The position numbers were made by a program, and so were the translations under genes. DNA of 63,920 nucleotides, filler included, from Welwitschia mirabilis (lineage: Eukaryota), in assembly GCA_051453625.1 (NCBI GenBank). It is 4 parts of one record of this genome, joined end to end, with 100 filler letters (N's around TTAATTAATTAA, not from the genome) between each part and the next. Parts side by side here need not be neighbours in the genome. Positions count along the whole stretch, not along the records: positions 21,133 to 45,638 come from JBOZIK010000001.1; positions 45,739 to 62,397 come from JBOZIK010000001.1; 2 more parts are not named here. One strand, given 5' to 3'. How positions within the stretch are numbered: position 1 is the stretch's first letter; the number at the start of each line of letters is the position of its first letter. Shown here in pieces: positions 7,161 to 62,397 of the stretch. Below the pieces are notes generated by a model. The model was not told the DNA's origin. It worked only from the letters and a program-made list of their open reading frames with translations, and made no database searches.

Positions 7161-7249
7161 ATATTTTCATTAATTATAGGTCCAATGTTGTGGTGTTTTT
7201 ATGGTTACAAGATAGTTCACAATGTCAACATATCATAGAGGAGGATGAG

Positions 7250-9690: not shown

Positions 9691-9699
9691 GACACATTA

Positions 9700-12061: not shown

Positions 12062-12080
12062 TTCCCTGGAAGTGATGCCA
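12062..12080 (-). other. Primer-binding site, decayed tRNA-Asp type (element A)
   Basis: Minus strand reads TGGCATCACTTCCAGGGAA vs the Athila-type TGGCGCCGTTGCCGGGGA. It lies 3 bp from the LTR terminus tgttgca at 12084. Confidence 0.75.
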
Positions 12081-12199
12081 AGATGTTGCAGTGCATATTN
12101 NNNNNNNNNNNNNNNNNNNNNNNNNNNNNNNNNNNNNNNNNNNNNNNNNNNNNNNNNNNNNNNNNNNNNNNNNNNNNNNNNNNNNNNNNNNNNNNNNNN

Positions 12200-18430: not shown

Positions 18431-18806
18431 TTTAATAATGTGTCTATAATTATCGTCTTTGTCATTTTCTGGACAATATCTTGGATGATTACTTTACAAA
18501 AAACAAAAAATAGAAAATAGAAAAAAATAGAGACAAAACCATAATAAAAACTGACAGTCATTCGCCCATGTCATCTGAATGACAAAGGATATGATATCAA
18601 CCTATTAGGCAATAGAAAACCAATAACAAAATGCTATAAAAAAATTCTTAAAAAAACCCTAACCTTAGACCATGATTCATTTATGTCATCTGTATGATAG
18701 ATAGGATAATGAAATGTTTTTTGTAGAATGAAAAATTAAACAACTATAGAAAGAAAAATTGTGGTATTTACAGTAAAAATATAACACTACTACACTCCTT
18801 GCAGTC

Positions 18807-18825
18807 TTTCCTAGGAATGGTGCTA
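18807..18825 (-). other. Primer-binding site, decayed tRNA-Asp type (element B)
   Basis: Minus strand reads TAGCACCATTCCTAGGAAA, adjacent to the LTR edge at 18829, in the same context as 12062-12080. Confidence 0.6.
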
Positions 18826-18828
18826 AGA

Positions 18829-39600: not shown

Positions 39601-40344
39601 ATATAAGGTAAATCATAGGAGATATAATTCAGTCATTCTATTTTTTGAAATCTTGGATAGTTATTTTTCAAACTATTTGTGGTAATTCATAACCAATTCT
39701 ATGAGTAAAACAATACTATAATGCCATTTGAAAGATTTCCTAGTTAAGCAGGAATCACATGTGTAAAGATAATGGTTATGAAAACTCCTCAACCTAAAAA
39801 TAATCGAAGTGTAGCTCTAAAAACTTCCTTGAATTTTCAAACTCATCTCATAATGTTAATATATGAAATTTATGCCATTTTGATAGTTTTAAGTTAAATT
39901 AAAGCCTTTCTAAAAAATTAGAATAATATTTTCTATTACTTTTCTCTCTTATTTTTTCATTTTTAAGTTAATATTCTATCAATATTAGTTTGGAATCCTG
40001 ATACACTCTCCATTATCATTTTTTGCTATTATATGAATCCATTTTCAATGTTATATATTCTATTAAATTTCATTTTTCATCACTTTTTCTCTTCTTGTCT
40101 TCCATTTAAAGGGCATTGTAGGAATGGTAAAGTGCATGGAATGGATTGTATAGGAGAAGGATAAGGTATTAGATCTTATAATCATTTAGATTGAATACTA
40201 ATAAAAGGGGCTATGATTTTATCTAAAACTAATAATTATTCTTTTCTTTACGATTCTATGATTTTATGTACTTGTTTTATGAATTCTCATCATGCTTTTC
40301 TTTTAATTTGACTAGACTTCTTAGAGCATGTTATAAAGTTAGTA
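36654..40344. mobile_element. Unresolved very old LTR-element non-coding relics; probable PPT/LTR start at about 39377-39384 (+)
   Basis: No coding motifs recognised. gattaagggcaaaaatctagagcatgggggag resembles a gypsy 3' end. The sequence appears to resume after 56123. Confidence 0.3.
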
Positions 40345-42166
40345 TCATGTAGGATTATCATTAGAAGATTAAAAAATAAATAAAATGTTTTAGCTAGGAG
40401 TTTATTTATTAAGATTTTAGTATGCTAGTATGGAAAATAATATCCAGCAAATGTAATGGACATGTAATCATGTAGTAGCATAGGAAGAGTTTTGGTAAGT
40501 AAAATATGTTAGAAAAAGACAAAGTTGTAAGGAATATGTCATGAGGAAATCCATGTGTAATGAATTCACTATTTTTAGATATTATTTCTAGTGAATTTAT
40601 GTAAGAGTCTAAGATTAAAAGGATTCTTTATTGATAAGGATTACTCTTAAAGCCTTATAAATAAGAATGTATGAAGAGATGAAGGACACACTTGGAGAGT
40701 ATTCTTTAGAGCATGGCTTTGAGAAATCCTTGGTAAAGGACTTGGAGAAGGAAGAAGTAAGAGATATTGAATTTGGAACTTAATAGGAGATTTTATTAAG
40801 GAACTTTAGGAGATAGTTCCTGGTGAATAACATGGCTTACTTTCATTCTCTCTTAAAGGATACTGAGCATAAAAGTAATAGAGCCTTGATAAGGCTTTGA
40901 TAAGGACTATTAAGAAAAGAGCTCAAGGAAGCTTTACTAGCTTGATACTTGTTTTTAAGTGTTGTAATTGTTGTTTCAGTAATAGAAAATAATTTATTCA
41001 TTATATTCAACATTTTGTTTCATAAATATATCTTATGTATTTCTATTTCTATCTAGAAATATAATTTCAAAAATATTATTATGGTTTCATTATGCTTACT
41101 TTGCATCATCTCATATCAAAGCAAGTGTTGGATATTGTGTGGAGTTGGTTGCTATTTTTCATTTTAGAAAGGGTATAGCTAAAGAAGCCAATATTTTCTC
41201 ACCTAGAAAATTACCTTATGAGGATAGAATTAATGATGGAAGACATTCTAAGAATGATGATGGATGAGAACCATATACTCGAGCATAAAAATGAAGCTTT
41301 AGAGAAGAAGCAGAATGAAGAATAGTCTATGGTGGAAGAGACACTAAATAAGGATGCTATTCATGAAGATCAAAATATGAAGTTGGATGTGGACTATGTT
41401 TTCTAGCACATGGAGCCAACTTTAGAGGAGAAGTACAGAGATGAACAAATCATGATGCAAGAGCCATCATAGAAAGATGTTATGTATGAAAATTAGAATA
41501 GTGTAGTAGAAGCAAAAAGCATAAAAGAAATGAAGGTAACTATAATTGCAAATATATAAGAGATACCCTGAGAATAATTTTTCTACAAGCTTGAGAAAGA
41601 TGAAGGAAAAAAAGAATCATCGATGAAAGATTAAAGCCCATGGAAGACTACTCATTAGAGTAAAGACATGCTCTTATTTGACTAGTAGCTAAATTTTTAT
41701 TGGTGGAGAGTATGATATAGAGACATCATTATAAGATGAAAACATAAAGAAAGTATTTTAGCTAGGGGTTTATTTATTAATATTTTAGTGTGCTGGTGTG
41801 GAAAATAATATCCACCATATGTAATGATCTTGCAGGTGTCATGTGCAGTAACATAAAAGGATTCTTGGTTGTTGGAATATGTTAGAAAAAGATATAGTTG
41901 TAAGGAATATGTCATAAATCAATCCATGTATAAGGAATTTTCTATGTTTAGATACTCCTTTTAGTGAATTTCGTAAGATGTTAAGATTAGATGCATTCTT
42001 TTTTAATAAGGACTGATCTTGGAGCCTTGTAAATAAGAGGGTGTGAGGAGATGAAGGGAATTATTAGAGAGCATCCTTTAGAGCATGACTTGGATAAATC
42101 CTTGGTAAAGGACTTAGAGAAGAAAGAGGTAAGAGATCTTGAATTTATAGCTTGGAAGGAACTCTT

Positions 42167-43346
42167 TGTAACACCAAACTTTTCATCACCAAAAAACATT
42201 ACTTTTCAAAATCTATTGAAATTATAACATCCAACTTTTTACAACTGAAAAATGTTACTTTTCTTAATATATTACTATAAATTAAATCACATGTAGCCCA
42301 TCCTCCTTAAGAAATTATAACTTCCCTATAATAATAATAATAGTAATTGTTCTTCATATGGTCCTCTCCTCCATAATGCATTAAATGTTCCTTATTTTCT
42401 TAATTTAAAACTAACCTACTATAATAATGATTAATTCAAAGTAATATGGGATAATGATACTTCTATTAAATCAATAATTATTGTAACAAGTTATAGTAAA
42501 ACTGATAATGAAACTATAGAGAATTTTAATAAGTAAAATCATAATTTATCACATCTGTTATTACAAGATCAAAAAGGTTTAACCAAAAATACACATAATT
42601 TAGTTTGAAAAGAATCCTTAACATCATAATAATTACATAACTTAAATTTCAGGATTCATAAAAAAATAGAAATTTCACTCCAATGTAGATATTTCAACAT
42701 AACCAAGAATAATAATCTCCATTTCTTTATGCCCTTCTTAGCATTCAAGCTTTAGTTTTACCACCTATGTACATAAGAAATATGGAGTGAGAACCATGAA
42801 AATTTCATAACTTCCAGTATGGTCTAGGTAAGGCAAGGTCAAGATTTGAAGAAATCCATGTCTCAAGACAAAGATTTGGAAGTTCCAAGTCTCAAGATAA
42901 GACGATCTTACAGAAATGATATAAAAAATAATCCATTTTTCAATAAATTGTTCATCATATTTATTTCATATTTTCACTCACTTCCTCATTTGGTGATCTA
43001 TGATTTACTCATAATATTTTTCATATATTCTCTTACTTTACTATTTCATATGTTCTCTTAATAATTTTTTTCTATATTAAAATCATGAAAATTGAAATGA
43101 TCACAAAAGAAATTAATATTAATGAAACTACAAATTTAGCCACTAAAGATCATTATTGTTGAGGGTTATAACAAAATAATATTAAGGTTATTACAAAATG
43201 TAAGGACTTAAAAGTACAAAATTTTCCACAATATAGTGTCATCTCAATAACACAATATCTATATTAGTTTGAGGACTCTATAATGACAAAATTATTTTAA
43301 TTTTTTAAAGATAAAGCTTTGGATCTTGACAAATCTAGATGTGACA
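42167..43346 (-). repeat. 3' LTR of the Tekay-type element (1180 bp, internally deleted relative to the 5' LTR)
   Basis: Collinear with 53860-~54740 and ~55520-55801, and adjacent to the PPT. Confidence 0.88.
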
Positions 43347-44975
43347 TTTCTCTACCCCTTAAAAAGTTTCCTTCTTAAAACTTAAACTACAATACATCTT
43401 TTTTATATTTTTTAATTAGCTTCTCTTTCTATCTCTTCCAAATTGTTGTACATACATAGTTGATTTTATCTTCGCTCAATGCCATATAAGTTATTAAATA
43501 GGTTGGAATGTTATTCCTAGGATTCTAATTTATTATCATGATAATATTAATTACCTCTCATGTCTGGAATGATCAAGCCTGTACAAATTTTCCTTCTCTT
43601 CTATATCACTCTCTTTGTTGTCAATTGTATTTTCTACCCTATTGTATTGTAATAGAGGATGGTCCTCTCATGGACACATGACTTCATGGCAAATATATTG
43701 TACGTACTTTTGTTAAAGTTGTCTTACATCACTAATTTAACCTTGTGTTGTAATATCTATCTTACACAACATGCTCTACCTTATATCGATCATATGGGTC
43801 TTTTTTTTTTTTTTAAAGTTTTTGACCTCATGTGGCTTTCCTTTGCTTCTAATTCTTTAGTTGAATGTAACTTCAAATCAGGTCTCAAGGACTTTTTATT
43901 ATGCATTATCACTATTTCACATGCTTCTACAAGCTTATTTTAGTATGATCTATATGAATTTCATGAAAAGATCTTTCATGAGAAACTAGGTAAGTACTAA
44001 ATAATTGCTTTTGGAAATAAATCTAAGAAATAATTGAATATACTTGTGGATAGTTGAAAACCATTAAATCTCAACCAAAATAAGCTTGGACTATAACATC
44101 AAATATTGCATCATAACAATCTGTCACTCCAAATCGTGATACTCACTTCTAAAGATGTTGTTAGAATCTTATATTACCAATTGATGTCAAAATAATGTGA
44201 TCTTTATAGAATGAAACTTGATTTTAAAGATGCAAGAAACTAAAGGATTTATATCCAAAAGATAGTAAGATTTGGACATGTTCTGATTAAAGTAACTTGA
44301 TTTTCTATCCAAGAACTTAAAGTAGGAGTTGACCAAACTTGGAAATACTCATTTTGAGCTATTTTATGAGGGGTCAATTGGATCTTTGAGGGGTTGTTTA
44401 AACCTAGAAATGCATTTTTAAAGATTCTTCATATGTACTATATCATATGGAGTCGACCGGACTCATGGGGGGTTGACCAAACCTGAAGAAAAGGGGTCAA
44501 CCGGATTTTATATGGGGGTAACCGAGCAAAGTAACGTGAATTACTCAGGTTGACTACATGGAAAAGGGGATGACCGAATCAATTAATTTGGGTCACTCGG
44601 ATTGACAGATGTTCCAAAGGGTCAATCGATCAAAGAGAAAGCAGAAATTTTCAAATAATTTTCTAACCTTTATATCATCAAATCTATTCATTTTAAATGT
44701 TAGATTTCTTCCTAACTATATAATGACTATATTTTGGGGAAATCTATTTAAAGAAACAACACTTAAAAACCTAGTGTGCTTAAGATCTAATGGATTTTGA
44801 AAAAAAGGATTGCACTCTTAATTTGAAGAGCTTACCTTTGTACCATCATTCTTCTCTCACTCAGCAGTTACCTTTGTACTAAATCTGAGTAATAAGTCTC
44901 CATTGTTAGTTCTTGTATTTGAGTGACTTAGAGCATAGAGGTTTTGTTCCCTCGCTCACCCTTGTGCATTTGATT

Positions 44976-45210
44976 GAGGTTAAGACTTAGCCTGCAAAAG
45001 TCCATTTTATGAAAGTTGAGACTTAGCCTGCAAAAGTCCATTTTTTGAAGGTTAAGAATTAGGCTGCAAAAAAGTCCATTTTATAGAGGTTAAGCTTAGC
45101 CTATAAAAGTCCATTCTATGAAGGTTAAGACTTAGCCTGCAAAAGTTTATTTGTAAAGGTTGAGACTTAACTTAAAAAAGTCCACTTTGTAAGGTTGAAG
45201 ATTAGCCTTA
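44976..45210 (+). repeat. ~36-bp tandem repeat in the Sirevirus-like LTR (6 units plus a partial; 4 plus a partial at 47932-48092)
   Basis: Unit consensus gaaggttgagacttagcctgcaaaagtccattttat. Confidence 0.9.
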
Positions 45211-45509
45211 GAAACCTGGTGGATATTGAAGCAACAAAGATCTAGAACAGTCTTGGTTATTAACTAACTTTTGAGAGTGGAGTAGGGTGTATCCCAAACC
45301 ACTATAAATCTTGTCTTGTGCATTTCTTTTGTTCTACTTTTTAGTTTATTTTGTTATATGTTTTTCTATCGTAATTTCTTTATTGGGTAGTAATAATTAT
45401 TATCCTATTTAATCGCTCTCTAGGATTCTTGATACTACATTTGGTAATAGAGCTCTAGGTTGAGTCAACACTAAAATTTTAATCAATATTTAAATCAATA
45501 ACTATAGCC

Positions 45510-46420
45510 ATGAGTTTTATTACAAAAGGTTTCTCTATTTCTAGGCCTCCACGGTTTGATGGAACAAACTATGAATATTAGAAGGCTAGAATTAAAATAT
45601 TCTTAGGATCTCTTGATATAGATTATGAGGATATATTGNNNNNNNNNNNNNNNNNNNNNNNNNNNNNNNNNNNNNNNNNNNNTTAATTAATTAANNNNNN
45701 NNNNNNNNNNNNNNNNNNNNNNNNNNNNNNNNNNNNNNACAATAGGAAACTAAAGGATCTAAAGAATCCATCATTAGTAACCACTTGGGATAACCTTGAA
45801 GAAGATGAAGAAGAAAGCTCAAATAAAGAATATTAAGAACATGGAACATTATCTTTCATGGCACTTATGAATTCCACCACTCACTAAGCATGATGATTTG
45901 GACATGGGTGAAGATGAAGAAGAGGAGGATTTTGAAGACACATATCATGAACTATATCAAGAATGTGAAAGGCTTGCTGTAAAAGTCAATGAACTGAACA
46001 ATAGCATTAATGATTTGAGAAGAGAGCATGAAGCCTTAGATCAAAGATATAAAGAGATTCCAGAAGAAAACACAAGTCTCATGAAGAATTTAACCTAGTC
46101 TTCACAAGTCTTGAGTAGATTCACAGAAGGATCAAAGAAACTTGAGAAGATGCTTGGATTGGAATAACTAGCAAATAACAAAAAAGGTATTGGATTTGAA
46201 GGCAATAGTACATCAACTTGATCCAATNNNNNNNNNNNNNNNNNNNNNNNNNNNNNNNNNNNNNNNNNNNNNNNNCATTATTGTTGCAAACTTGGTCATT
46301 CAAAATTTAACTGTCCATATAGAAAAAGTATGTATTTTGCAAATATTAATGCATTATCATTTAAATTTGTTTTCAAACAAGTCTCTACCCCAAATTCAAG
46401 AAAGATCATATGGGTAAAAG
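45510..46420 (+). pseudogene. Sirevirus-type gag remnant
   Basis: MSFITKGFSISRPPRFDGTNYEY*KARIKIFL (copia gag N-terminus), acidic coiled-coil ORF 45898-46098, RFTEGSKKLEKML..KKGIGF, zinc knuckle HYCCKLGHSKFNC and KIIWVK. Spans a linker gap. Confidence 0.82.
45639..45738. other. Artificial scaffold linker N44-TTAATTAATTAA-N44
   Basis: Linker at 45683-45694 with 44 N on each side. Confidence 0.97.
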
Positions 46421-49155
46421 CTAAGAATTTTGAGTTGTTTTGATCCAAGAAAATTTTAAATTTAGTACTAGTTCATTATTTTGATTAATTATCATTTATT
46501 AAAATAGTTTTTCTAAATCATCAATTGTTGTAATATGATGTGCTTCTTGGAACCATCATTTTGATATTTACCTTGTTATCAGATTTGCATCTTAATGATA
46601 ATTTTTTGTGAAGATTTGTCGATAAGTTTTGAATATTTTGATGTTTCACTTTGTAATTAGATCTTGTTATCATGAACATAGCATCATTTGGTATTATTTT
46701 ATAATGAATTGAAAATTATCCTCTTATTTACATACTTGCCTTGAAACTCTATCATGATTATTATTAATTTTTTTACATATATATATGTCATAAAGTTAGG
46801 GGGAGAAAATATGATATTTCTCATCACCTGCCTAAGTTTTATAGCTCTTTTTCTATCTTTTTTTATCCTTTATCATTAATTTCAAAGGGGGATAAACTAT
46901 GTTGTTTTCAAAAATATGCATGAACTAAAAATGATTTGTTTCAAAAATATTTCTTTCTTAAAAGGAATTACACACTTTACTTAATATTGTTTGCATGACT
47001 TTATAAAAGGGGGAGCTTTTATTATGTGCCTTGTTAGAAAAGAGCTTAAATATGAAATATTTGTTTAATCTTAAAATCACTCATTTGTTTGCCATCAATG
47101 TCAAAGGGGGAGATTGTTAGGATTTTATATTTCCAATTGATGTCAAACTAATATGATCTTTGTAGAATGAAATGTGATTTTATAGATGCAATAAACTAAA
47201 AGATCCATATCCAAAAGACAGTAATATTTGAATATGTTCTGATTAAAGTAACTTGCTTTTCTATTCAAGGACTTAGAAAGTAGTCAACTAAGCTTGGAAA
47301 TACTCGTTTTGAACTACTTTGCAAGGAGTCGACTGGATCTTTGAGAGGTCGACCAGACCTGGAAATGAATTTTTCAAGATTTTCCATATGTACTATGTCA
47401 TATGGGGTTAACCAGACTCATGTGGGGTCAACTGAACCTGAAGAAAAGGGGTTGACGGGATTTTAGATGGGGACAACTAGACCAAGTAACATGAGTTACT
47501 TGGGTCAACCAGATGGAAAAAGGGACGACTGGATTAAGTGATGTGAGTCATTTAGATTGATCGGATGTTTCGAAGTGTCGACCGGTTAGAGTGGAAGCAG
47601 AAATTTTCAAACAGTTTTTTAACCGTTATATCACCAAATCTATTAGTTTCAAATGTCAGATTTCTTTCCAATTATCTAATATTTATATTTTGGGGAAATC
47701 TATTTCAAAAGCCAACACTCAAAAACTTGGTGTGCTTAAGATCTAATGGATTTTGAAAAAAAAGGTTGCACTCTTGATCTGAAGAGTTCATCTCTGTACC
47801 ATCATTCTTTTCTCACTCAACACCTACCTTTATACTAAATCTAAGCAATAAGGCTCCATTGTTGGTTCTTACATTTGAGTGACTTAGAGCATAGAGGCTT
47901 CATTTCCTCACTCACCCTTGTGCATCTTATTGAGGTTGAGACTTGGCCTGTAGAAGTTTGTTTTATGAAGGTTGATACTTAGCCTGAAAAAGTCCATTTT
48001 ATGAAGGTTGAGACTTAGCCTACAAAAGTCTGTTTGTGAAGGTTGAGACTTAACCTGAAAAAGTCCACTTTGTAAGGTTGAAGGTCAGCCTTGGAAACCT
48101 AGTGGATAGTGAAGCAACAGAGATCCAGAATAGTTTTGGTTATTGACTGACTTCTGAGAGTGGAGTAGGGTGTATCCCCAACCACTATAAATCTTGTCTT
48201 GTGCATTTCTTTTGTTCTACTTTTGAGTTTGATTTGTTATATGTTTTCTGTCATAATTTCTTTATTGGGTAATAATAATTGTTTAAATTTTTTAGAATCC
48301 TATTCACTCCCCCCTTTGTAGATCCCTTGCAATCTAGACTCCTTTGTTGTGTACTTCTTTCAATACCTCTTAGATACTTTGGCTTGTATAATTTAGTTGG
48401 ATTTCCATTTCAAAGGTTAATATGTACAATATAACACCTTGAATCCTAACAAGTCAAGAATAAAATGTGTGAAATAAGGCCAAAGTTATGCAAGTATAGA
48501 TTAAATAAATATACAATAGCTTTTAGATTAACTAAGAGTGAGTTGAATTGAGCCTTATAAGCTAAAGTATCTTTATACATATTCCATCCAAACAAGACTA
48601 CTAGTTTTAACTATAAACAATAATAGGATTTAAAGACTTGTCATCTAGCTAAGGATTACAATACATAGGTCAATGATAATTATGAAAGAGGACTTGACTA
48701 ATATAAATAACTCATCAAGGAATATAAGAAACTTTTAAGACAGGGAATTATCTAAAGATTTGTTGACAATAGTATATAAGCTACCCAGATAAGCCAAAAA
48801 GTTAACCCATTGATGAAAGTAATACCTCTTCACTTTTATCCACCAACATATCATGATAATATCACTTTCCTTTATCTATAAATCCAAACAACTAAAGTTA
48901 AACTAAATCAATCAAAATGAAGGTAATAGGGGATGAATATTCCTTGAACTATTTCTTTCTCATCTTATAGACAAGCATCCTCGCACAAGATGTCTTGCAA
49001 TCAACACAATTTAAAAATGATTTAATGGATAAAATGATTTTAGAGTTCTTATGCAACATGATTTCTTTAAAAATGAAGGAAAATAACTTTAGGAGAAATA
49101 GATCCCCATGCGATATTTTTCCAAATTGTATCATACTTTTTGCTTAATTTCTTAC

Positions 49156-49905
49156 CTGTTCTGCCCTTGCTTTATGCGCAATCATATGGCTTTTGGAGAA
49201 ATTCAAAAAAAAGTCCGGGCACGGTGGCGATGGAGTATTGCTTAGCAAAGGCAATGAAGATTGGAAATCCATGCTCCTGTGCTCTGCTTTTACTCTGCAA
49301 CCACTACCATTCTCCTTCGTCTTCCTCTGCCTGTTCGTCATCGCGCTTATCTTCCTCATTGTTGTCCTCTGCGTCTGTATCTGCCCGCACATCTGCATTT
49401 GCATCCAAGATCACTTTCGCATCTTCATTCTAAATGGACAATGTAGAAGGACCTTCTTCGTCTTCTTTCACTTCTAAGAACCTCGGTTTCTGCAGAAGCA
49501 TAGGCAAGACATAGAACGATGTAAGTCAATATCCCATATACTCGATATGGATATGAATGGAGAGGGATTCAATTGTTATGATAAAGGTTTAGTGCTTGTA
49601 GGCTATGTTGGAGGTTTGTTCTTTACAAGTTCCAATTCGCTGGTGAACTACGTTTTGAAGTTTTTGTTTATTGATTCTATTTTGAAGCCTTGCTGAAGGG
49701 TTTCTATCAGAAATTTGTCCGTCTCTTTTGTCCTATACTTCATTTCTATGCAATTCTTTAAACTCTTCTCTAGCGCTTCCACAATCTCAACCTTACTGGT
49801 CCAATCTATCCCCTCACAGGACTGGATTAGTTGAGTTTTAAGCTTGTAAGGGAATATGCTTAATAGCACCTTACCAGACTTCTCAAATGGACAAGCATGG
49901 ATCTG
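49156..49905 (-). pseudogene. Unidentified disrupted coding fragment with acidic low-complexity tract
   Basis: ORF 49648-49947 (KETQIHACPFEKSGKVLL..IETLQQGF) is followed by EVKEDEEGPST..DADVRADTDAEDNNEEDKRDDEQAEEDEGE. It ends at a consensus-like donor CAG|GTAAG (49156/49155) and is CpG-rich relative to its surroundings. Confidence 0.4.
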
Positions 49906-51003
49906 TGTTTCTTTCATATAAACATTTCTCCGGTTCAATTCCTCCATCTGTATTGTTATTAAATCGTCCCTATAGACTGGTCATTTCAAACAACAAATTA
50001 AGTGGCCAGATACCTACTCTTTGAATTCACTGGAACATTTGATGACATTGAGGTTCGAAAACAATCTCTTCACTCTCAACATTACAACTCTTTAGGACTT
50101 CGATATGTGAGACAATCATCTAATGGTTGCAATTCCTCAGTTATTGTTCTATTTTCCTACATCTGCATTCTCGGAAATTTGTTTCTTTGTGGAAATCCAC
50201 TACAAAGCTGTAAAAACATCATAAGCAACTCCACAACTCAAAAGGATATTGTGAATTCCAACCCAGCTGTCCAAGTTCTAGATGTCGTGCTATTATTGCG
50301 ATAATTCTGGGAGATTTTGCTGTGTTGCTTCTTGTAACCTGTATATTACTATGCTACTACTGGCATCATTATGAAAAGCAAATGATTAACAAAAAGCCTA
50401 CAAAGGGATTAAATTTCGAAAATGATGCTTATGTTTCAGGTTAGTATACAGTTCAAGCAGGATTTATTGAGAAGGATACTAGACAATTTAAGCTCAAAGA
50501 TCTTCTGCGAGCATCTGCTGAAATGTTGGGAAAAGGCAGTACTGAAATGACATACAAGGCTATTTTAAGAGGATGCTAACGTGGTTGCAGTCAAGAGGCT
50601 AAAAGATGTCCATGGTTTAGGCAGAAGGGACTTTGAGAAGCTATTAGAAAAGCTGCAACACAGAAATGTGGTGAGCTTAAAGGCTTCCTATTGTGTTAGA
50701 GATGAAAACTACTAGTTTATGATTATATGGAGAACTTTAGTCTACATACTCTTCTACATGCCAATAGAGGCCCTAGTAGAACCCCTTTAGTTTGGACAAC
50801 TACAACGAAAATTGCTGTAGGGGTAGTCCGGGGCCTTGCATTTATTCACTATTCCAGTAAATCTCCTAAGTTGGCTTAAGGAAATGTCCGATCTTCCAAT
50901 GTTCTCATTGACAAGAATGGAAATGCATGCATTTCAGATATTGGTCTATTTTCTTTCTTCATGCCTTGTAAAGTCAAACCATAAGAAAATGGCTATCTGA
51001 AGC
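49906..51003 (+). pseudogene. Fragment of an LRR-III receptor-like kinase (At1g68400-like): LRRs, transmembrane segment and N-terminal part of the kinase
   Basis: FLSYKHFSGSIPPSV..YRLVISNNKLSGQIP..GNLFLCGNPLQSC..IILGDFAVLLLVTCILLCYYW..FKLKDLLRASAEMLGKG..VVAVKRLKD..LLVYDYM..LLHANRGPSRTPL..GNVRSSNVLIDKNGNACISDIGL..NGY. Several frameshifts and stops, truncated at both ends. Confidence 0.92.
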
Positions 51004-51519
51004 CTTTCTTCATTTTATGAATTCACTTTGGTTTCTGCAAATTTTATTTATGCTTCCATTATCCTTACTATCAGATCTAAGAGGGTTAGCTCCTATTTGT
51101 GAACGACGTTCCCTATATCCATAATTAGAGTCATTTCAAGTGTCTTGAATTGTAGATTATCATATAGATAGTGATACAGAGCTTCTTAGGAAAAGGACCT
51201 TCCATTAATTAACACAGCAGATTAGCTGCATTGTTTAAACTTTTCAAGACTAAGAAATCACATAGACAATCCCTCAACTTCAAAGGTTGGAATAGCATTA
51301 CTAAAACTTGATAGATGATACCTGGTTATGGCTGTAAGCTGAACACTCCCTGAAACCAGTCCAAAGCATTGGTAAAAGAAAACCAAGGTTTAGTGCAGTA
51401 ATCTGACTCAAAAATTCATGAGTGTTTTGGTAGTAATAGGATAAAACATCAATTGATAATACAAGACTTTAGAAATAAAACCAGAAAAGCAAAAATGAGT
51501 GACCATATAGAAGAGTAAA

Positions 51520-52080
51520 GGGGGTTTATCAATCTTACTCAAATAATGTGCTATTCTCCTGGAGAACATTAGCTTTAGGAATAAGAAAAGGGTCAAAAAT
51601 TGATAATGGTAAATATTTTTAGGAAAATTGTCTACATTTAAGAGGATCTCTTACTTTGCCAAAGCTTCACTTGAATGACAACATTGAGAACTCATTCCTC
51701 ATTGTGATGGCATTTGAAGAATGTTTTCTTCAAGAGAAAACAGTTCCACAATATGTCATCTTCATGAATTCTCTCATTGAGAAGGGAAGTGATGTAGTGC
51801 TTCTGTGCAGGGTAGAAGTAACTCAGAACACACTGCAAGTTACAAAGAGGTGGAAAATCTCTTAAACCATCTTAGGATATACATCATAAGGCATGAAATT
51901 GTGGAGATTGAAGAACAAATGGGCAAGAGGATCCAAAAGCATCATTAGAGCTCTAAAAGAAGGATGACCAAAAAAATTCATCGAGATCTACTTTTCAAAA
52001 CCTTGGGAAGCCTGTATTACATTTGTAACATTCATTATATTGATTTGAATTCTAATGCATATCATCTATGTATAACATTA
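51520..52080 (+). pseudogene. DUF247 (UPF0481) protein C-terminal fragment
   Basis: LTLPKLHLNDNIENSFLIVMAFEEC..YVIFMNSLIEKGSDVVLL..NTLxSYKEVENLLNHL..YFSKPW followed by a hydrophobic tail, which is the characteristic DUF247 ending. Frameshifted. Confidence 0.88.
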
Positions 52081-52816
52081 AAAACAGTTCTTAAGGAAAT
52101 AAATAATGCTTCTCAGTCCAAACTTGTTTCAAAGATCAAGAAAGAAATACTTCGTTTTCACTATACATCCAAAGTAAAAGAAAATCAAATAGACGTATCA
52201 GGGATCATAAACTGAGAAACTCCTTTCTTATGGATTCTGGAAAAGGCAAAGAAAACTCGTCATTACCCTCTGCTACGTTAAAAAGAAGGAAAGTCTCAAT
52301 CGAAATCATTCTTCAAATATTGTATCAAATGAAACTTGTAGACTACCAACTATCTTTAAATAACTAAACGGAGGAAAAAAAAAAAAAAAACGCAAACTCT
52401 TAGAGGATTGCAGGAAACCGTAAGATATGACTTCTCCCAATTCGAGAAAATTCCATATGTATGAAAACCATAGACTCTCAACAACCTCAAAACAACTAAA
52501 TCAAAATTGTGGAGCCTTAAGAGGACTGCTAGAAACTCTTGAGTAAAAGATAGTATCTGCCGATCCAAAGCATTTCAATTTACAATTCTAATTTTATTTC
52601 CACTAAATCATCAAAGATCTACTAATTTGAAGGCCAAAGCTTCAATCCTGTACAAGTCACTATAAGGATCTTCAAGTCTCGATGTCGCTTCTCAGTCCAA
52701 CCAATTATTCAAATTTCCAGAATATCATGACATCCTCTGCAAGATCCGCAAAGAAAACATGCATTACCTTTCTCTTGCGAGTCTGCCAAGTGTTTTCGCT
52801 CTAATCTTCGAACAAG

Positions 52817-52882
52817 CCCTAATTCACGAGGCAAATAACCAAACATAAGACTCTTCTTAACACCATCTGCTGTGACTGCTTT
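52817..52882 (-). pseudogene. Possible HIRAN-domain exon fragment (plant FAN1/RAD5-like)
   Basis: KAVTADGVKKSLMFGYLPRELG in ORF 52709-52921 resembles the HIRAN GYLPRELA motif and is preceded by a pyrimidine tract and AG. Short match only. Confidence 0.35.
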
Positions 52883-53844
52883 TAAAGAAGCAACAGAGAA
52901 ATTATAAAAGAGTTGAAGCAACAGCTACAAGGATGCGTTGAACAATGAAATGCAATTGTAAAAAGATCGACATGGCTCAAATCATTGAATCTAAGATTTT
53001 TGAATTGCCAAAGCAAAACCTCCTACAAATTCTGAATTACAAAATGTCATCGTTAAATACGAAGCATTTTCCCTATTGATGTTCTTGCTCATTAAATACG
53101 TGCCTCGGACGTTGGTTCATAACAAATACTCATGAAAAATTTGTATGATGTACGCTCAGAGGGCACGGTGAAGAAGCCCTAAGACTCTTATCTCAACATT
53201 CTCGTCCTTGGTTCAAAGTCTAATCGCTTTGTTATTGAAACTGTACTGAGTGCACACATTATCTTAGCTTCTGTGAAGCAAAAAAGATCGACATGTACTC
53301 TGTTAAGCATGGATTCCACAGAAATCATGGCTAATTTCATCCATTTCAAGATGTGCAAGGTGTGTTTGACAATATATCTGAATACAATTTGGTCTGTTAT
53401 ACTGCAACGATAGCGGGAACAACATGATTTCTGCAATGATAGCAGGTTATGTTTACAATAGCATGATTTCTGTTAAAACATGAAATGTTTTTAAAGAAAT
53501 GCAGTTAAGTGAAATTATGCCAAATTCAAAGCTTCTTGCAATTATTTTGAGACCCTATTAATGTTTCCAATAGACTGAACAAATCCATAGGTTCTTTGTT
53601 AAAGTTGGACTTTACTGTTGCAGTTTTTCCCTTGGCAATACTATTATCTCTTAAGATAGTTTTTTCTTTTATGTAAATGACTTAACATTATTGTAAGAAG
53701 AGGTTTAGGTCTATTCTAGGAAGTATTTTCACAACTTAGATTGTTACAAAAGCTTCTAGTTATCTTATTCAACTAATAAGACCACTTAGGCTCTGATGTT
53801 GTAACGACTCAGTAGAGACTACGCCTAGCCAAATCACACCCATA

Positions 53845-53856
53845 GCTTTGATACCA
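53845..53856 (-). other. Primer-binding site, tRNA-iMet type (Tekay-type element)
   Basis: Plus-strand gctttgatacca is minus-strand TGGTATCAAAGC (one mismatch to TGGTATCAGAGC), 3 bp from the LTR at 53860. Confidence 0.88.
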
Positions 53857-53859
53857 AAA

Positions 53860-55801
53860 TGTAACACCCAACTTTTCATAATCAAAAAATGTTACTTTTC
53901 AAATTCCATTAAAATTGCAACACCTAACTTTTTATAACAGAAAAACATTACTTTGCTTGAAAAGTTATTATAAATTAAATCACATGTGGCCCATCCTTCT
54001 CAAGAGATTATAACTTCTCTATAATAATGATAATAATAGTAACTCTCCCTAATATGGTCTTCTCCTTTCTTAATTTAAAAGTAACCTACTATAATAATGT
54101 TTAATTCAAAGTAATTATGGGATAATAATACTTCTATTAAATCAATAACTATTCTAACAAGTTATAAGAAAACTGACAATGAAAATATAGAGAATTTTAA
54201 TAAGTAAAATCAGAATTCATTACATCTATTATTATAAGATCAAGAAGGTTTAACCAAAAATACACATAATTCAGTTTGGACAGAATTCTCAATATCACAA
54301 TAATTACATTATTGAAATTTTAGGACTCACAAAAGAACTACAAATTTCACTCTAAGCTAAATATTTCAACATAAACTAGAATAATAATCTCCATTTCTTT
54401 ATGCCCTCTTCGGTATTGAAGCTTCAATTTTACCACCTCTTTACATAAGAAATATGGAATGAGAACCATGCATTATGGTCCAGGTAATGTAAGGTAAAGA
54501 TTTGAAGAAATCCATGTCTCAAGATGAAGATTAGGAAATTCCAAGTATCAAGATAGTTAAGCTAGATCCAATAATATCAATGATGATCTTACAAAAATGA
54601 TATGAGAATTAACTGGTTTTTCAATAAATTGTTCATCATACTCACTACCTCATTCAGTGATCTATGGAGTCCATTGCTTCATTCGGTGATCTGTGGATTT
54701 CTCATATTATTTTTCATATATTCTCTTACTCCACTACTTCGTTTGGTGATCTTTGAAGCCACTACCTCATTCAGCAATTTGTGGTTCAATCAATCAATTC
54801 CACTACCTCATTCTGCGATCTGTGAGTTCTCACATTTTATTACCTTATTCAGCGATCTGTGGAATAAAAGATTACAAGAATCTAAGATATTGAGAGAAAT
54901 ATGAGTAAGGTATATTAACAAAACATAAATCCTCCACAATAATAACTTGGATTTAGATTCATAAAGATGTCGTTAAGAAGAAAATAGTAGAAGCTAAGAT
55001 TTATACCTCGGAATGCATCTATTCGAGTATTGATAACACACACACCTAGCATCTTTATAATATTTGCTAGAAAACAGATACAATAGAAATGCATAAAAGG
55101 ATGCATAAAAGGAAAGGACCAATCAAGAAAGCAAGAATGAAATGAGACCATACCCGTATGTAGTTGTAGTTCTTCAAGACTTTAAGGCTCTTTTTGGATT
55201 CCAAAGCTCCAAGGTTTTTTAGCTTTAAGCTGAAATCATCAAGATCCAATAATGAGTGCTTGCTTGAAGATATGTAAAATACAAGAAGAGGGGAGTCTTA
55301 TTTGTAGTATGAGGATGTCGGGGTTATGAGGATACTCAAGAATACAAAGAGACACCATCATGAGATGGAGGTGGTGAAGGTGGCGGGGGTTTCATAGTGC
55401 CTCATCATTACTTGCTTGACTACTAGGCGCATTTTAATTCATTATGATAAATAAGAATGCTTAATTCTACCACATGAAATTAAAACAATGGAGAATTAAA
55501 ATAAGTCATCAGATAATAATAGTTTTCCATGTAAAAATTAAGAAAAGTGCAATGATCATACAAAGAAAATAATATTAATGCAACCACAAATTTAGCCACT
55601 AGAGATCATTCTTGTTAAGGGTTACAACAAAATAATATAAAGGATATTATAAAATGCAAGGACTTAAAAGCACAAAATTTCCCACAATATAGTGTCATCT
55701 CAATAACACAATATCTATATCAGCTTGAGGATTCTATAATGATAAAATTATTTTAATTTTTTAAGCTAAATCTTTGGACCTTCAAAAAATTGAACGTGAC
55801 A
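53860..55801 (-). repeat. 5' LTR of the Tekay-type element (1942 bp) with internal ccactacctcattcagcgatctgtgga-like repeats (about 54643-54865)
   Basis: TG..CA termini, adjacent PBS, followed by the TSD CTCTT. Confidence 0.88.
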
Positions 55802-58526
55802 CTCTTGTTAAGGAACTTAAGGAGATATCTCTTTATAAAGATCATGGCTTACTTGTATTCTTTCTTGAAAGCTACCAAGCATCAGAGTGATAAAGCCTTA
55901 ATGGGGCTTTAATAGCCACTATTGGGGAAGAAGCTCAAGGAATATTTGTTGATTTAATATCAATTTTTAAGTGTTTTAATTCTTATTTCAATAATAGAAA
56001 CTACTTCATTTATTATATTTAATACTTTTTTCCCTAGATATTTCATCTATATTTCTATTTCTATTTGGAAACATAATCATAAAGTGTTCTTAGGATTTTG
56101 TGTACTAGCTTTACATCATAGCGCTAATTGGATTGTTTTGCATCTAGAACCTATCATAGCATACTATAATTTTGTATTGTTGGTTACTCTTTGTCAAAGC
56201 AATCATATATTTTATTCCTTTTCTCTCTTTTTTCCACCATTCTTCTCATTTCTTCTAATACATTTCTCACAACTTCATCTTTTTCCTTAAGCAAATGATG
56301 CTGAATTTCTATTTACTTATTTTTAATAGAAGTAGTTTAATTTATAAATATGTTATTTATTTATTTATTTCTAAAATTAAAATTGTGTATTTTGTATTGA
56401 TTCTTCTCTTTTCTTCCTCATCTTCTCAAAAGCGAAATAGACTAGTAATTTTCAGTGCTTCCTTTGGTCATAACACTTTTTATAAAACTCTAATGTTTTT
56501 TAAATTTTATTAGTAGCTTCTATACATAATTTAGAAACTTTCATTCTTAATGCATTAGAACCCACATTTAACCTCTAAAACCCCAATTTTGGCCATTTAT
56601 AAGTAAAGTTGCAATCGTATTTAGAAACTTTTTTGATATGTGAAATCTTAATTTTCTTTTTTTTCGCATGGTAAATTTTTCTATCATTATTAATGTATTT
56701 TTAGAATATTAAGATCCTATGTAATAATATTTCTTGAGTAATTTGAAAATAAGTAATCCAAGTTTTCTCAAGTTTTCTAGTTTGCTTAATAGTCATTGTC
56801 AAGATAAAGTTGACTATAGTTGTTACATCTTTTGTCTATGCAATATGTTTATTTTGATTTGAATTGATTCTACTTATTTTTAATGTATACTTTTAGAAAC
56901 TTATTTTAGGACATATTCTATGTATTTTGAAGGCTTTACTAATTTATAAGTCTATTTTTCTGAATTTCTTCTCTCTTTTCTCTGTCTTCTTTATTTTTTT
57001 TCTTTTTTAATGAAAATAGCTTAAAATTGCTAAGTGTTACTTTGATTTTATAAACATTTATATATGATTTTTATCAAATACTTATTGATTTGGAACCTAA
57101 TTTAGATGGTTTATTTCTTTTATAACTTATTCTATGATAAGCTAAGAGTTATCTTTGAAGTCAAATGTATCAAAATTTAGTGAAAATATTATTTGAGTCT
57201 AAATGCTATGTTAGCTTGAAGAATATCATTTTTAAAGTGCTATATTTTGATTCTAAGATATTATAAATTTTGTATATAATTGAATGAGATGTTTGAATTA
57301 CTCATTTATGTCCATATTATATGATTTCAAGTAATGAACTTTGCTAAGAAAATTCTTTTGTATAAAATGACTTTACTAGATTTAACTATCTAAATTCTCT
57401 TACTTGTTCATTTGAGTTATGAATAATCTTTAGAATCATAGTAAATTTTTATAAAAGATTATTTCTTTTTATTTTATTATATCTTTCCTTTCATTTCTTA
57501 TAAAATTATGCTTTTGACACATGTAGTTCTTCATGATAACTTTAAGCCATGTGTTTTAATTACTTGTATGTCACTTAAGAGAAATAGTTAGCTTTATCAT
57601 GTAAAGTAACAACTTAATAAGATAATATTAATATTTTTATATAAAGCCATGTCAAGTGTTTATCAGTTTAATACTCATGTGACTTCATAATATATGCAAT
57701 TTAACCTAGAAGATACATTAATGCTTTAATTTGAACTGTTTATATTTGATTTTATTTCATTGAATTGAATTATTATGTTAAGTAGACATTTATATTTTCA
57801 AAGGTTCAAAATGTAAATTTCTCATTTTAATAATTGAGTTGTTTTCATTGTTCAATTCTAGATAAATTATCTAAATAAAGAAGTCCAAGAATAAAGATTG
57901 AATGTCAAGAGAACTCCAAGAAGCAAAACAAGAAGAAGAATAAAAATAAGTACCTAAAGTCCATTTTCTAACTCATTGTTAAGGCCATTCTTGTTCTTAG
58001 TCTCCTACTATCATTACAAAAAGAAAGGTGAAAATCCCACTAGAAAAGCATCTTATGTACTTTCTTTTTCATCTCCTTCTTCTCCTCCTCTTTATCATCA
58101 TTCCTACTCCACTTTAAGTAACACATTTCTAGAATAAGTTTCTAAAAACTTAAAATAATTAAATAAGAAATCTTTGGAATAAGATGAAAAAGATTTTGAA
58201 GAAGCAAAATTAAATATCCAACAAGTAAGAATAAATTGACAAGAAGTGTAAGAAAGTGATTTCTCATTAAAGATCCATTAGTGGGAACATATTCCACTCT
58301 TCACTTTGTAATTTTTCCTATGAATTTTTAGATGTACTTTGTCTTGTTTTGTGTTTTTCTTATTTTACATGCCCTTCTCTTTGATTCAATGGTTTTTTAA
58401 TTTAGCAAAATTATTCTCTTTTATTGCCATATGCATCTTAAATCTTTTGCACAATTTTATTCTCATATACATTTCAACTTTCATTTCATTAACTTTGGGG
58501 ATAAAGTTAGATTGAGTTGGGAGGAG

Positions 58527-59788
58527 TATTGCATTGCCAAATTATATATATTTGATATAGTATTTTGAGTAGTTTTGTAGGACATTAGATAGGTTTATGC
58601 TGAGTTTCAATGATAATGGAGATCTAAGATAAATATCACAAAAACATGTAATCCTCATTACATTTGATAGTATTTAAAGCAAATTACAATACTTCCTATT
58701 TGAAGTAGCAATCTTATAATCAAAGAGGATAATCCAACCCAAGAAATATCTATATGAAGTTCATCATCCACCTCATCATTTGGACAATCGTACAGATAAT
58801 AAAAGTACTTATGTTAATAAGGAAACTTAATAGATTAATCTAATAGCTAATGTGGATCTTGTATGATGTGGCATCATCTCCTATGATATCCAGACAATCA
58901 ATAAGATGATAACTAAAAATAATGCTTCACCAAACTTCACCAAACTTTTGCCATGTGTATTGCACCTTCTTACATAGTTGTTAGGGTTTTTACCACGTCT
59001 ATTAGTGTTTGCTATTTTTAGAGTCTATTTTGTAATATACTTCTTTCATCCTTAGCTTTAATTTTACCTTTTTTGGTACTAAAAATTCGTATGACATGAG
59101 ATCGAAAAATAGGAGTTCATCCCTTGCTGTTGTAAAGAGACATCTTCCTTGGTATTGGGTTATGTATCCTTCATTGAGGTATTGCTGTTTTGTAACATGA
59201 ATGTTAGTTCGACTTAATCAAAACTCTAGTTTTCTTTTTATATCTTTTGTTATGTACATATCCCTTATGGTTTATATGGCTTTTAATTTTGTAACAGCTT
59301 CATCTGTGATATATATCATAAAGGAAACCTTTATTAAGATTAAGATTATTAGTTTAGGTGCATTGCATTTCATTTTCTAGATTAATTTTGCATTGTTTTC
59401 ATATTCTGTTTGATGCACCCGATAGCTTAGGTTGGTGTTGGTTTGATGATAGCTTTCCTTGATTGATCTAGGTTATACAGGGCCAATCTCCATGATAGGT
59501 TAATTTGGTAATGAGATAAATGTTATATTTAAAATAGAACTTGCATTCCATTTGCATAGTATGCTTATTTGCATTGTTATTTTACATTGTTATTATTCTA
59601 CTTAGAAATTACATGAGTGTTTCATTTTAAAATTAATTCTCTTTATTATCACCTATGTCTTTGATGGAATTACAACATTTGGATTACTCTCATCTATATT
59701 TGTATGTTATGTTGTGTAATATATATATTTTGATGGTTTTTAGGATTTGTTTGAGAATTTAACATTTTCACAAATATGCACCAAAACA
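58527..59788 (+). repeat. Athila-like LTR with a PPT upstream and a PBS downstream
   Basis: PPT gagttgggaggag 58514-58526, LTR tattgcattgccaaatt...caccaaaaca, PBS tagtgcctttactaggaa 59792-59809. Reverse-complement similarity to 18829-20066. Confidence 0.72.
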
Positions 59789-62397
59789 TCTTAGTGCCTT
59801 TACTAGGAAAGGCTACTTGGAATTTAAGGATTATCATTTCTCAGATAAATAGTTTGAATTTCAGTTCAAGTATTTATCTAAAGTAGAATTGTATTCTTAT
59901 AATAGAAATGTAGGTTTTTCTTTTCATATTTTCTAATTTGCATTCCGAAAATAATGCCCTATCATCCCTCTCCTTTTTCTAGGTGATGTGTGATGATGAC
60001 AACCTATGAAACTTAGGGCTTTTCATTTTCTTAAAAACTAAGATTTTCTTATTGTTTTATTTGTCATCTAGATAATTTAACAAATGACTATCAATGTTTA
60101 TTTTGTATTATTTCATGATTCTATTTTTCTATGTTTTTAGTTTTCAGGTTTTTTTGGTCTGCTATCATCTAGGTACAATCATCTAGATGCCCACAACGAC
60201 AATGTTTGCAAAAATAGAACTAATCATATTAGGACATGGTAAACTTAGGTAAAAAGATGAAATATCAGAGAGAGCAACTATTAATCAAAGAAAACATTTG
60301 AGAAAGTTTGATCAACCATGAANNNNNNNNNNNNNNNNNNNNNNNNNNNNNNNNNNNNNNNNNNNNNNNNNNNNNNNNNNNNNNNNNNNNNNNNNNNNNN
60401 NNNNNNNNNNNNNNNNNNNNNNNNNNNNNNNNNNNNNNNNNNNNNNNNNNNNNNNNNNNNTTACAATGTTAAATTATATGAAAAAATAGAAACAAGTTGC
60501 TTCATCTAATCCTCCTATTATGATCGAAACCTCTACTACTCCCATAATTAAAATGATAATTTCACTCTTAAAGAATTAATTACAAATAAAAGGCATGAAA
60601 TCCAAAATCCTTTTGACCTATTTCCTCATGATGACGTTGAGTTAGTGTTATATTAGAAGAAAATAAAAGAATAAAAATGTCTTAATTGATATAAGAGCGA
60701 GGGTTAACATTATGACTTTATACATTTATCAACAACTTTGTTTGAAAAATAAAATTGAGCCTACACATATTATCTTAGAATTGGTGGATACATCAGTGAA
60801 GAAACCTTTAAGAATAATAAAAGATTTGATGATATAAATTAAAAAAGAATTCTATCCAATAGATGTGATTGTGATTGAATTTGAACATAATGGAGGATAT
60901 TCACTACTTCTAGATAAAGCATTTTGTGTAATAGCCTATTGTATTATTGATACAAGAACTAGAATGATGGAATGTTACTTAGGAAATAAAAAGTTTACCA
61001 TTAGAGTTTTTAGTGCTATTAAAAAGGATTTAGGTGATGATTTGAATATTAAAAGAGAAATTAAGCCAATACTATTTTTATAACAATGTCCACTTAAAGA
61101 AAGATGATTAATGCTTCGTGAGCCTACCTTGTTTGATGATCCAATTGAGGTAGAAAAGTTGAAAGTCTTTAATAATGATCAAATCAATTATGAGCATTTA
61201 GGTACTAACTATTTTGATCAAGAGACTGAATAAACTAAAACTATAATCTATAAATAAGTTTAACATTTGAAAACAACTATGATTTCTTATTTTAACTGAG
61301 GTCATCCACCCCAATCATCTAGATGACAGTTTGAGACAATGATTAAATTTGAGTAAAATTTAACAAAAAAGAAAAATCTAAATTTAAATCTGAAATCTTT
61401 ACCTAGTGGACTAAAATATATCTTTTTGTATAATGATGAGAACATAACTTTAATAATAAATGAGGATATTTTCCCTTCATAATAACCAATTTTGACCTCA
61501 CTTTTGAATTATAAGGTTAATGCATTTGCTTGGTCCCATAAAGATTTAACAACCATTCCTACTTCTATTATTTAACATAAAATCTACCTTGATAATAAGG
61601 CAAAACCTATTAGATAACCCTAACGTAGAGCAAATTCAGTCCTTAAACAAGTAGTAAAGGATGAAATTATTAAATTAATAGATGCTAGAATTATTTATGC
61701 CATACTTGCCCTTTAATGGTAGTGCCTAAGAAAGATGGGAAGTGGAGAATGCGTATTGATTTTAGAAAACTAAATAAAGTAATAAAGAGAGACCATTGTC
61801 CTTTAACTTTTCTTGACTAGGTACTTGATAGAATCTAAGGACATGCCTTTTATTACTTTCTTGATGGGTATAGTAGCTACAATCAGGTTTGTATAGCTAG
61901 TAAGGATTAAGCTAAAACTACTTTTACTTCAACTTTTGGAACTTTTACCTTTAGATGCATGCCTTTGGANNNNNNNNNNNNNNNNNNNNNNNNNNNNNNN
62001 NNNNNNNNNNNNNNNNNNNNNNNNNNNNNNNNNNNNNNNNNNNNNNNNNNNNNNNNNNNNNNNNNNNNNTGTTTAATGACCCATTTGAAGTAAAAAAATT
62101 GAAAGCTTTGGATGATGATCTACTTAACTATGAGCATTTAGGAACTGATTGTTTTAATCAAGAGTCTGAAGAAACTGAAACTATACTCTCTAAAGAAGTT
62201 CAATATCTAAAAACAATTAAGATTTCATATTTTAAGGGAGGTCATTCACCCTAATCTTCTAGATGATGGTCTAAGACAATAGTTAACTTTGATAAAAACT
62301 TTATAGAAACTAAAAATCTAAAATTAAATCTAAAATCTTTACATAGTGAACTAAAATATATCTTTCTGTGTGATGATCAGAATAAATCATTTATAAT
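58527..62397 (+). mobile_element. Athila-like element E (LTR, PBS, internally deleted gag, protease, RT start) plus a fragment of a related copy after the gap
   Basis: gag start near 60237, LIDIRARVNIM near 60680, ORF 60865-61083, RT WRMRIDFRKLNKVIKRDHCPL..FLDGYSSYNQ..TFGTFTFRCMPFG (61740-61969). 62071-62397 is a diverged repeat of about 61131-61460. Confidence 0.82.

Follow-up and report, generated by a model that had tools for sequence, protein, structure and literature searches.

A 63,920-nucleotide stretch of the Welwitschia mirabilis genome (NCBI GenBank assembly GCA_051453625.1), made of four joined parts with filler between them and referred to here as the window, contains at 42167-55801 a long terminal repeat (LTR) retrotransposon that carries pieces of two unrelated host genes between its LTRs. 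The element is one real LTR retrotransposon, structurally complete and long dead. It entered its site in a single insertion, has no retroelement coding domains, holds a piece of a receptor-like kinase gene and a piece of a DUF247 gene, and combines abundant LTRs with a low-copy interior. The reading that we favour, at a probability of roughly 0.55, is that of a non-autonomous element which had its cargo, as the low-copy interior is called here, already aboard at insertion and which moved in trans roughly 6 million years (My) ago.

The limits of the element were obtained by a direct-repeat scan and self-BLAST, which found the LTR pair at 42167-43346 and 53860-55801, and by direct reading. Both LTRs open with TGTAACACC and close with GTGACA, giving the element TG..CA ends. 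The following features delimit it:

42162-42166, no strand: left target-site duplication (TSD) CTCTT, read directly
42167-43346, minus strand: 3' LTR of 1180 bp, without 762 bp that are found in the 5' LTR (repeat scan, BLASTN and MAFFT)
43347-43360, minus strand (reverse complement): polypurine tract (PPT) AAGGGGTAGAGAAA, which adjoins the 3' LTR, read directly
53845-53856, minus strand: primer-binding site (PBS) TGGTATCAAAGC, separated from the 5' LTR by TTT (3 nt)
53860-55801, minus strand: 5' LTR of 1942 bp, in which 54752-55513 is unmatched by the 3' LTR (repeat scan, BLASTN and MAFFT)
55802-55806, no strand: right TSD CTCTT, read directly

The PBS TGGTATCAAAGC is presumably a match to the 3' end of the initiator tRNA-Met. 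This arrangement of PBS and PPT is that of a minus-strand LTR retrotransposon of 13.6 kb occupying 42167-55801, in which all the structural hallmarks of the class are present: an LTR pair, a 5-bp TSD with its insertion, a PBS and a PPT. Direct reading and BLASTN bear out in this respect a preliminary description of the same DNA, which had reported the LTRs, the CTCTT duplication, the PBS, the PPT and the minus-strand orientation.

The insertion event itself can be followed in the flanking DNA. The left flank (41676-42166) and the right flank (55807-56120) are the two halves of one repeat of ~790 bp, an uninterrupted copy of which lies at about 40318-41110. When one CTCTT is retained, 42080-42166 and 55807-55900 align colinearly to 40700-40900 without a gap at the junction, and the alignment locates the corresponding position in the uninterrupted copy:

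40795-40799, no strand: paralogous empty site, from the gap-free alignment

A longer alignment of the flanks to the repeat copy agrees with this empty site. Because the flanks are contiguous in the paralogous copy, the 13.6 kb represent one insertion. The left and right halves of the element are connected in the assembly across N gaps (45639-46275), so that the 13.6-kb length is only as reliable as the gaps at 45639-45738 and 46228-46275 where the halves are joined. The cargo, the PBS, the 5' LTR and the right flank lie together on a gap-free contig, 46276-60322.

The search for coding capacity gave a consistently negative result. Pfam matches to gag, protease (PR), reverse transcriptase (RT), RNase H (RH) or integrase (INT) were found in none of the 115 open reading frames (ORFs) of at least 35 aa in the element, and none of the six read-through frames, in which stops were written as X, matched a retroelement domain at E<=1. 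The best match in a tblastn search with three gypsy polyproteins had an E value of 0.064 and fell at 51779-51850, away from the nested LTR element that interrupts the interior. As a positive control, the read-through scan was applied to four decayed, stop-ridden elements fetched from metagenome contigs by their LTR-end and PBS motif, and it recovered gag, RVP_2, RVT_1, RNase H or SH3_Tf2-1 in three of them. The earlier statement that the element has no recognisable gag, RT, RNase H or integrase was thus upheld by the ORF, read-through and tblastn searches with a control that worked; the protease relic said to lie on either side of the nested element was not recovered, since there was no RVP match and the best tblastn match lay elsewhere. 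With no pol domains, the element does not display the PR-RT-RH-INT order of Ty3/gypsy pol.

The family to which the LTRs belong can be approached through the LTR end and PBS taken together (GGTGTTACA, 3 nt, TGGTATCARAGC). This signature occurs in at least 113 metagenome stretches, coding gypsy elements included, and the three control elements that retained domains have them in Ty3/gypsy order. Loci L004, L030 and L067, all on metagenome contigs, are plant-like Ty3/gypsy elements with the signature. Comparison of 111 loci bearing it yielded only four matches, of 32-56 nt and all at the motif itself, and no family member among them. The signature may be taken as a lead that points to Ty3/gypsy for the family, short of superfamily membership, because the control elements share nothing else with the element. 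Rfam gave no match on 40000-58000.

The cargo occupies about 4.8-4.9 kb, bounded on one side by the PBS and on the other by about 1 kb of 3' backbone that the element has kept, and is composed as follows:

48980-53839, no strand: the low-copy, GC-richer cargo segment as a whole (35.8% GC versus 28.9% for the window)
49070-49501, minus strand (sense strand of the element): relic of an acidic ORF with two in-frame stops
49777-51005, plus strand: pseudogene piece of a receptor-like kinase of leucine-rich repeat (LRR) subfamily III (Pfam, protein search and tblastn)
51006-51456, plus strand: spacer between the gene pieces, also present in contigs of cargo relatives
51457-52045 (about), plus strand: C-terminal piece of a DUF247 gene (Pfam; similarity to a relative, record 12 of DNA run X4, begins at 51457)
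52046-53839, no strand: low-copy sequence without a family match in the Pfam ORF and read-through searches, stopping only a few bases short of the PBS

The kinase piece was recognised by three approaches. Pfam matched PK_Tyr_Ser-Thr at 50643-50954 (E 2e-5; a score of 24.4 bits, above the cutoff of 23.1), and the protein search returned 1101 homologs at E<=1e-5 (best E 3e-40), named PXC1, At1g68400-like or RLK-Pelle-LRR-III in their sources. In tblastn with six full-length relatives of ~650-680 aa, residues ~73 or 100 to 530 map onto 49777-51005. The piece spans the LRRs, the transmembrane segment and the kinase as far as GYRAP, which may be an exon boundary; it is without the N-terminus and the final ~130 residues, is spread over three frames that contain at least 12 in-frame stops, and has no intron-size internal gaps. 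The DUF247 piece corresponds to profile positions 262-400 of 401, the C-terminal third, at 51641-52045 (E 1.5e-12). Both pieces are stop-ridden and lie on the plus strand, antisense to the element. The LRR-III kinase and DUF247 fragments of the preliminary description are therefore real, as Pfam, the homolog search and tblastn agree. Its placing of gene fragments on both strands has to be corrected, because the two verified pieces are on the plus strand only, and its HIRAN-like motif had no Pfam match at E<=1 in the 115 ORFs or the six frames. The acidic ORF that it listed does exist at 49070-49501; the host origin proposed for it found no homolog, none of six candidates having scored in a near-length search. 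The sole match from an exhaustive search, a 2103-aa protein with PKD and Ig domains, was rejected as compositional only (BLASTP E 0.39). Host-gene sequence between PBS and PPT with no gag or pol is what characterises a gene-fragment-carrying non-autonomous LTR element, and it is what was found here.

Copy number was examined with Logan contigs from three DNA runs (X1, X4 and X8, from three studies with two organism labels) and with one RNA run, placed on 46276-56400 at a likeness of at least 80%. The summed word depth in X1 was distributed along this interval as follows:

nested element: 1,256-18,830
48304-48979: 670-845
cargo, 48980-53711: 5.6-25
5' LTR bins, 53712-55739: 306-1,441
right flank: 480-530

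The single-copy contigs of the locus have a depth of 2.4-2.9. The number of differing contigs per position in X1 was 21-47 in the LTR versus 1-9 in the cargo, and depth falls at the PBS, with 81.6 at 53918 (LTR) versus 4.9 at 53631 (cargo). Because the depths and the contig counts per position agree, the LTR family is abundant and the cargo low copy, which implies that most members of the LTR family are without the cargo. The depth on the right flank also indicates that the target repeat belongs to a high-copy family, which may be that of an LTR from a further element or of a dispersed repeat.

The cargo is not confined to this locus. Contigs about 85% identical to it (X1 records 3, 5 and 6 at 50074-50775, 50705-51477 and 50900-51966, and X8 record 18 at 50074-51203) span the junction of truncated kinase, spacer and truncated DUF247, which consequently exists elsewhere. 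At spacer position 51309 there are 6, 11 and 8 other contigs in X1, X4 and X8, respectively, and X8 record 22 matches 52642-53017 and 53327-53804, stopping 41 bases before the PBS. Run X4, which has the second organism label, contains the same locus: over the 1,568 bases of records 13, 15 and 16 there are 2 differences and 1 gap, an identity of about 99.9%. Of the cargo family anticipated in the preliminary description, relatives at ~85% with the same junction are present in the three DNA runs; the cargo is low copy, and most LTR members lack it. In the oligo-dT RNA run, about a quarter of which was read, 358 reads were at least 80% alike and only 8 at least 95%; the reads otherwise derive from diverged relatives, mostly at 49217-49500. 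The reads at 49217-49500 are 80-90% alike, in both mate orientations and with consistent loose ends, and this pile-up shows that the organism transcribes a diverged relative of the acidic region.

The age of the insertion was estimated from the LTR pair. BLASTN between the two LTRs gave one match of 923 columns at 77.9% and another of 289 columns at 86.5%, and in the MAFFT alignment 169 of 1129 aligned sites differ (15.0%; identity 85%). The Kimura two-parameter distance (K2P) was 0.142 and 0.179 in two blocks and 0.169 when pooled. With the rate of 1.3e-8 per site per year given in the excerpt used of PMC5664825, a grass rate uncalibrated for Welwitschia, the outer insertion is roughly 6.5 My old. 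The LTRs of the nested element differ at 202 of 1203 sites (K2P 0.197). They are not demonstrably older than the outer pair, because they show more transitions yet fewer transversions. The two copies of the ~790-bp target repeat, about 1370 bp apart, are separated by a K2P of 0.26-0.32. The 762-bp surplus of the 5' LTR (54752-55513) contains repeats of a ~26-nt motif. Its depth resembles that of the remaining LTR sequence, which points to loss of this part from the 3' LTR rather than to its gain by the 5' LTR.

Taken along the favoured reading, the locus would be the fossil of a non-autonomous LTR retrotransposon from a high-copy family with a Ty3/gypsy-type LTR-end and PBS signature. The cargo, perhaps acquired in a progenitor copy as DNA or unspliced RNA, would have been aboard before integration, while autonomous relatives may have supplied the gag and pol proteins in trans. 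The element integrated into one copy of the ~790-bp repeat, creating the 5-bp duplication; later changes were the nested LTR insertion, the 762-bp difference in LTR length and point decay, and it is now inert. Presence of the cargo before insertion is favoured because PBS, PPT, LTR edges and TSD are all intact and because the foreign segment abuts the PBS; a low-copy segment that begins immediately next to the PBS is easier to understand as an internal domain than as a nested insertion that happened to land there. It is favoured too because no termini of a different transposon class were found around the cargo and because the relatives share its internal junctions at a sibling-like divergence. 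Over the 14 relative pieces listed, 1135 of 7375 aligned letters differ from the cargo (15.4%), close to the 15.0% between the LTRs, as expected if the cargo has been diverging from its nearest relatives for about as long as the LTRs from each other, in a comparison skewed by the 80% cutoff and by the fact that only the longest pieces are listed.

This bias is the first of several points that weigh against the favoured reading. The placement of contigs and reads covers the element only from 46276 onwards, its right two thirds, and the cargo is ~100-fold less abundant than the LTR by summed depth, so that it marks a tiny subfamily at best. X1 record 3, X4 record 9 and X8 record 18 all cease to match at exactly 50074, whereas the kinase homology of the window continues across that position, which implies that the copies differ in structure. 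Position 50074 may be a shared breakpoint or an insertion in the relative copy or copies. X4 record 12, of 3522 bp, matches only 51457-51890, and flanking LTRs of the same family and separate TSDs can only be presumed for the cargo relatives. Because no TSD is recognisable at the borders of the nested element, a rearrangement at one of them is possible. Moreover, the antisense orientation of the two gene pieces is not what simple template switching onto a sense mRNA predicts.

The best of the competing explanations is that the interior was replaced after insertion: an ordinary and possibly autonomous element would have inserted, its gag-pol would later have been lost by illegitimate recombination and the break patched over several kilobases from a kinase-spacer-DUF247 mosaic locus, by double-strand-break repair or ectopic conversion. 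We regard this course of events as unlikely, although several points speak for it. The element is old and rearranged, as seen from the 762-bp LTR length difference and from a nested insertion that lacks a clear TSD, its surroundings are transposon-rich and interrupted by N gaps, a relative with the same junction exists as a possible template, and patching at the DNA level would be indifferent to the antisense orientation of the gene pieces. Such a replacement, however, must have erased the whole interior up to a few bases from the PBS and yet spared the PBS, the PPT and both LTR edges. The 15.4% between cargo and relatives is not below the 15.0% between the LTRs, so that the patching would have been needed almost at once after the insertion, and a patch of several kilobases is presumably unusual.

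It is improbable that the cargo is instead a separate low-copy transposon (a Pack-type Mutator-like element or Pack-MULE, a Helitron, a CACTA element or another LTR element) that became nested in the interior and whose ends were eroded or deleted. Cargo and non-genic spacer do recur in several copies, with 1-9 other contigs per position, as a small mobile family would, and the relatives break off at the common point 50074. Against this, no terminal inverted repeats (TIRs), as a Pack-MULE, CACTA or hAT carrier would have, were found: the best inverted matches are of 17-35 nt, with E values of 0.007-0.3, those between the two arms are of 17-31 nt, with E values of at least 0.3, and none bounds the cargo. 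Nor was there a convincing Helitron 3' hairpin followed by CTRR, only stems of 6-7 bp with a mismatch. Helitron, MULE or CACTA ends of the cargo's own, which the preliminary description had named as evidence that would speak for a later nested insertion, were looked for and none was found, and a nested transposon would in any case leave the loss of gag-pol and the abutment on the PBS unexplained. Finally, wrong scaffolding of two LTR-bearing contigs over the N gaps at 45639-46275 is very improbable: the left contig (to 45638) and the right contig (from 46276) do meet only through gaps in a very-high-copy nested repeat, but the outer flanks share CTCTT and are contiguous in the paralogous repeat copy, PBS and PPT adjoin the inner LTR edges where they belong, the two nested LTRs form a diverged pair, and the cargo, PBS, 5' LTR and right flank share the one gap-free contig already described.

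The antisense orientation of the pieces, together with a kinase that lacks its downstream part, hints at capture of DNA or unspliced RNA and not of spliced sense mRNA. A more specific history is only tentatively suggested: a few-copy gypsy-type subfamily might have captured a ~5-kb antisense multi-gene block as DNA or unspliced RNA and then retro-mobilised it intact. The block would consist of a receptor kinase exon-1 piece, the spacer and the DUF247 piece, and its capture would be the LTR counterpart of Pack-type transduplication.

The remaining parts of the interior do not belong to the cargo:

43361-44158, minus strand: PPT-proximal internal region with no recognisable domain (ORF and read-through Pfam searches, tblastn)
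44159-48331, plus strand: nested very-high-copy LTR element, with LTRs at 44159-45440 and 47115-48331
48332-48560, minus strand: high-copy internal stretch, probably backbone of the LTR family

The backbone assignment is consistent with the depth in X1, which declines from 1412 at 48481 to 52 at 48567 and 14 at 48930. The nested element has a PPT (AAAGGGGGAGA), a PBS-like site (TGGTAATAGAGC) and 36-bp tandem repeats, its LTRs are 83% alike, as diverged partners, and it contains three N gaps, those at 45639-45738 and 46228-46275 among them. The tandem repeat occupies 44977-45208 in one nested LTR (6.5 copies) versus 47933-48081 in the other (4.2 copies), and many contig joints in the read data jump by multiples of the 36-bp unit. 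The ORF Pfam search found no protein domain in the assembled part of the nested element, and nothing points to the copia assignment that it had been given. In the rest of the window, weak RT-like similarity to gypsy polyproteins was found at 7920-8587 (minus strand) and 61710-61916 (plus strand), with tblastn E values from 9e-7 to 2e-4, which marks further decayed retroelements. The window as a whole represents a repeat-dense, AT-rich and transposon-rich plant region in a draft assembly with many gaps: it has twenty N runs, each 10-692 bases long, and the GC content of its 2-kb bins is 23-36%.

Several known systems resemble this locus. Large retrotransposon derivatives (LARDs) and the Dasheng/RIRE2 pair are non-autonomous partners of autonomous LTR families, with internal domains conserved across many copies. 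They share with the present element an LTR, PBS and PPT held in common with a high-copy family and a foreign non-coding interior, and they differ from it in that the interior is here in few copies only. The internal domain conserved in a sizeable family that defines a LARD is not seen, the cargo being represented in X1 by 1-9 contigs versus 21-47 for the LTR and by a depth of 5.6-25 versus 300-1440.

Capture of host genes by LTR elements is itself well documented, and the sources are quoted here from excerpts. The excerpt of PMC5664825 reports 1398-3898 genes inside LTR elements in the plant genomes surveyed, protein kinases included, and places about 72% of LTR-borne nucleotide-binding leucine-rich repeat genes (NLRs) in elements without gag or pol. 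The parts used of a review (PMC13317346) attribute about 1,235 rice genes to LTR captures, count 1,343 transduced sequences in sorghum LTR elements and describe maize Bs1 as carrying segments of three host genes. The premise of the preliminary description that LTR capture is rarely reported is, on these two excerpts, outdated, as thousands of genes or fragments are counted in LTR elements, the majority of which have no gag or pol. The term 'Pack-LTR' was not met in the literature search, and the phenomenon that it names is not new.

The closest parallel is the retroduplication described by Kim et al. (2017, PMC5664825), in whose excerpted text the same combination appears of an LTR pair, no gag or pol, a kinase cargo and a need for mobilisation in trans, with intron loss as the criterion of retroduplication. 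The pieces are here, in contrast to the cases in that text, truncated, decayed and antisense, with two unrelated genes adjacent. Maize Bs1 is likewise an LTR element with several host-gene segments, none of them full length, and according to the excerpt of PMC13317346 they form a transcribed and translated chimeric gene, whereas here no frame survives. The pieces at this locus are moreover antisense, no gag remnant was found in the element, and the kinase piece is interrupted by at least 12 stops. The rice and sorghum captures of Jiang and Ramachandran (2013, PMC3726574) also have host sequence between LTRs; they are, in the excerpt, survey-level calls, and here a single locus has been dissected with an empty-site control.

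Pack-MULEs, Pack-CACTA elements and Helitrons, as presented in the parts used of PMC13317346, share the mosaic of host fragments inside a transposon. The locus differs from them by its LTR, PBS and PPT ends and 5-bp TSD, with no TIR or Helitron ends found. Pack-type carriers may also give rise to small RNAs that target the donor genes, and cross-talk by small interfering RNAs from captured fragments has already been proposed for maize (bioRxiv 10.1101/777037, in excerpt); no effect on donor genes is shown by the present locus. It is an old and inert new example of an established phenomenon, and adds one case to those already counted in thousands per genome. Should sibling copies share its LTRs, the antisense orientation and the truncated kinase would bear on the choice between acquisition from DNA or unspliced RNA and acquisition from spliced mRNA. 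The locus stands as a cleanly bounded LTR carrier of two unrelated host-gene pieces that comes with an internal empty-site control.

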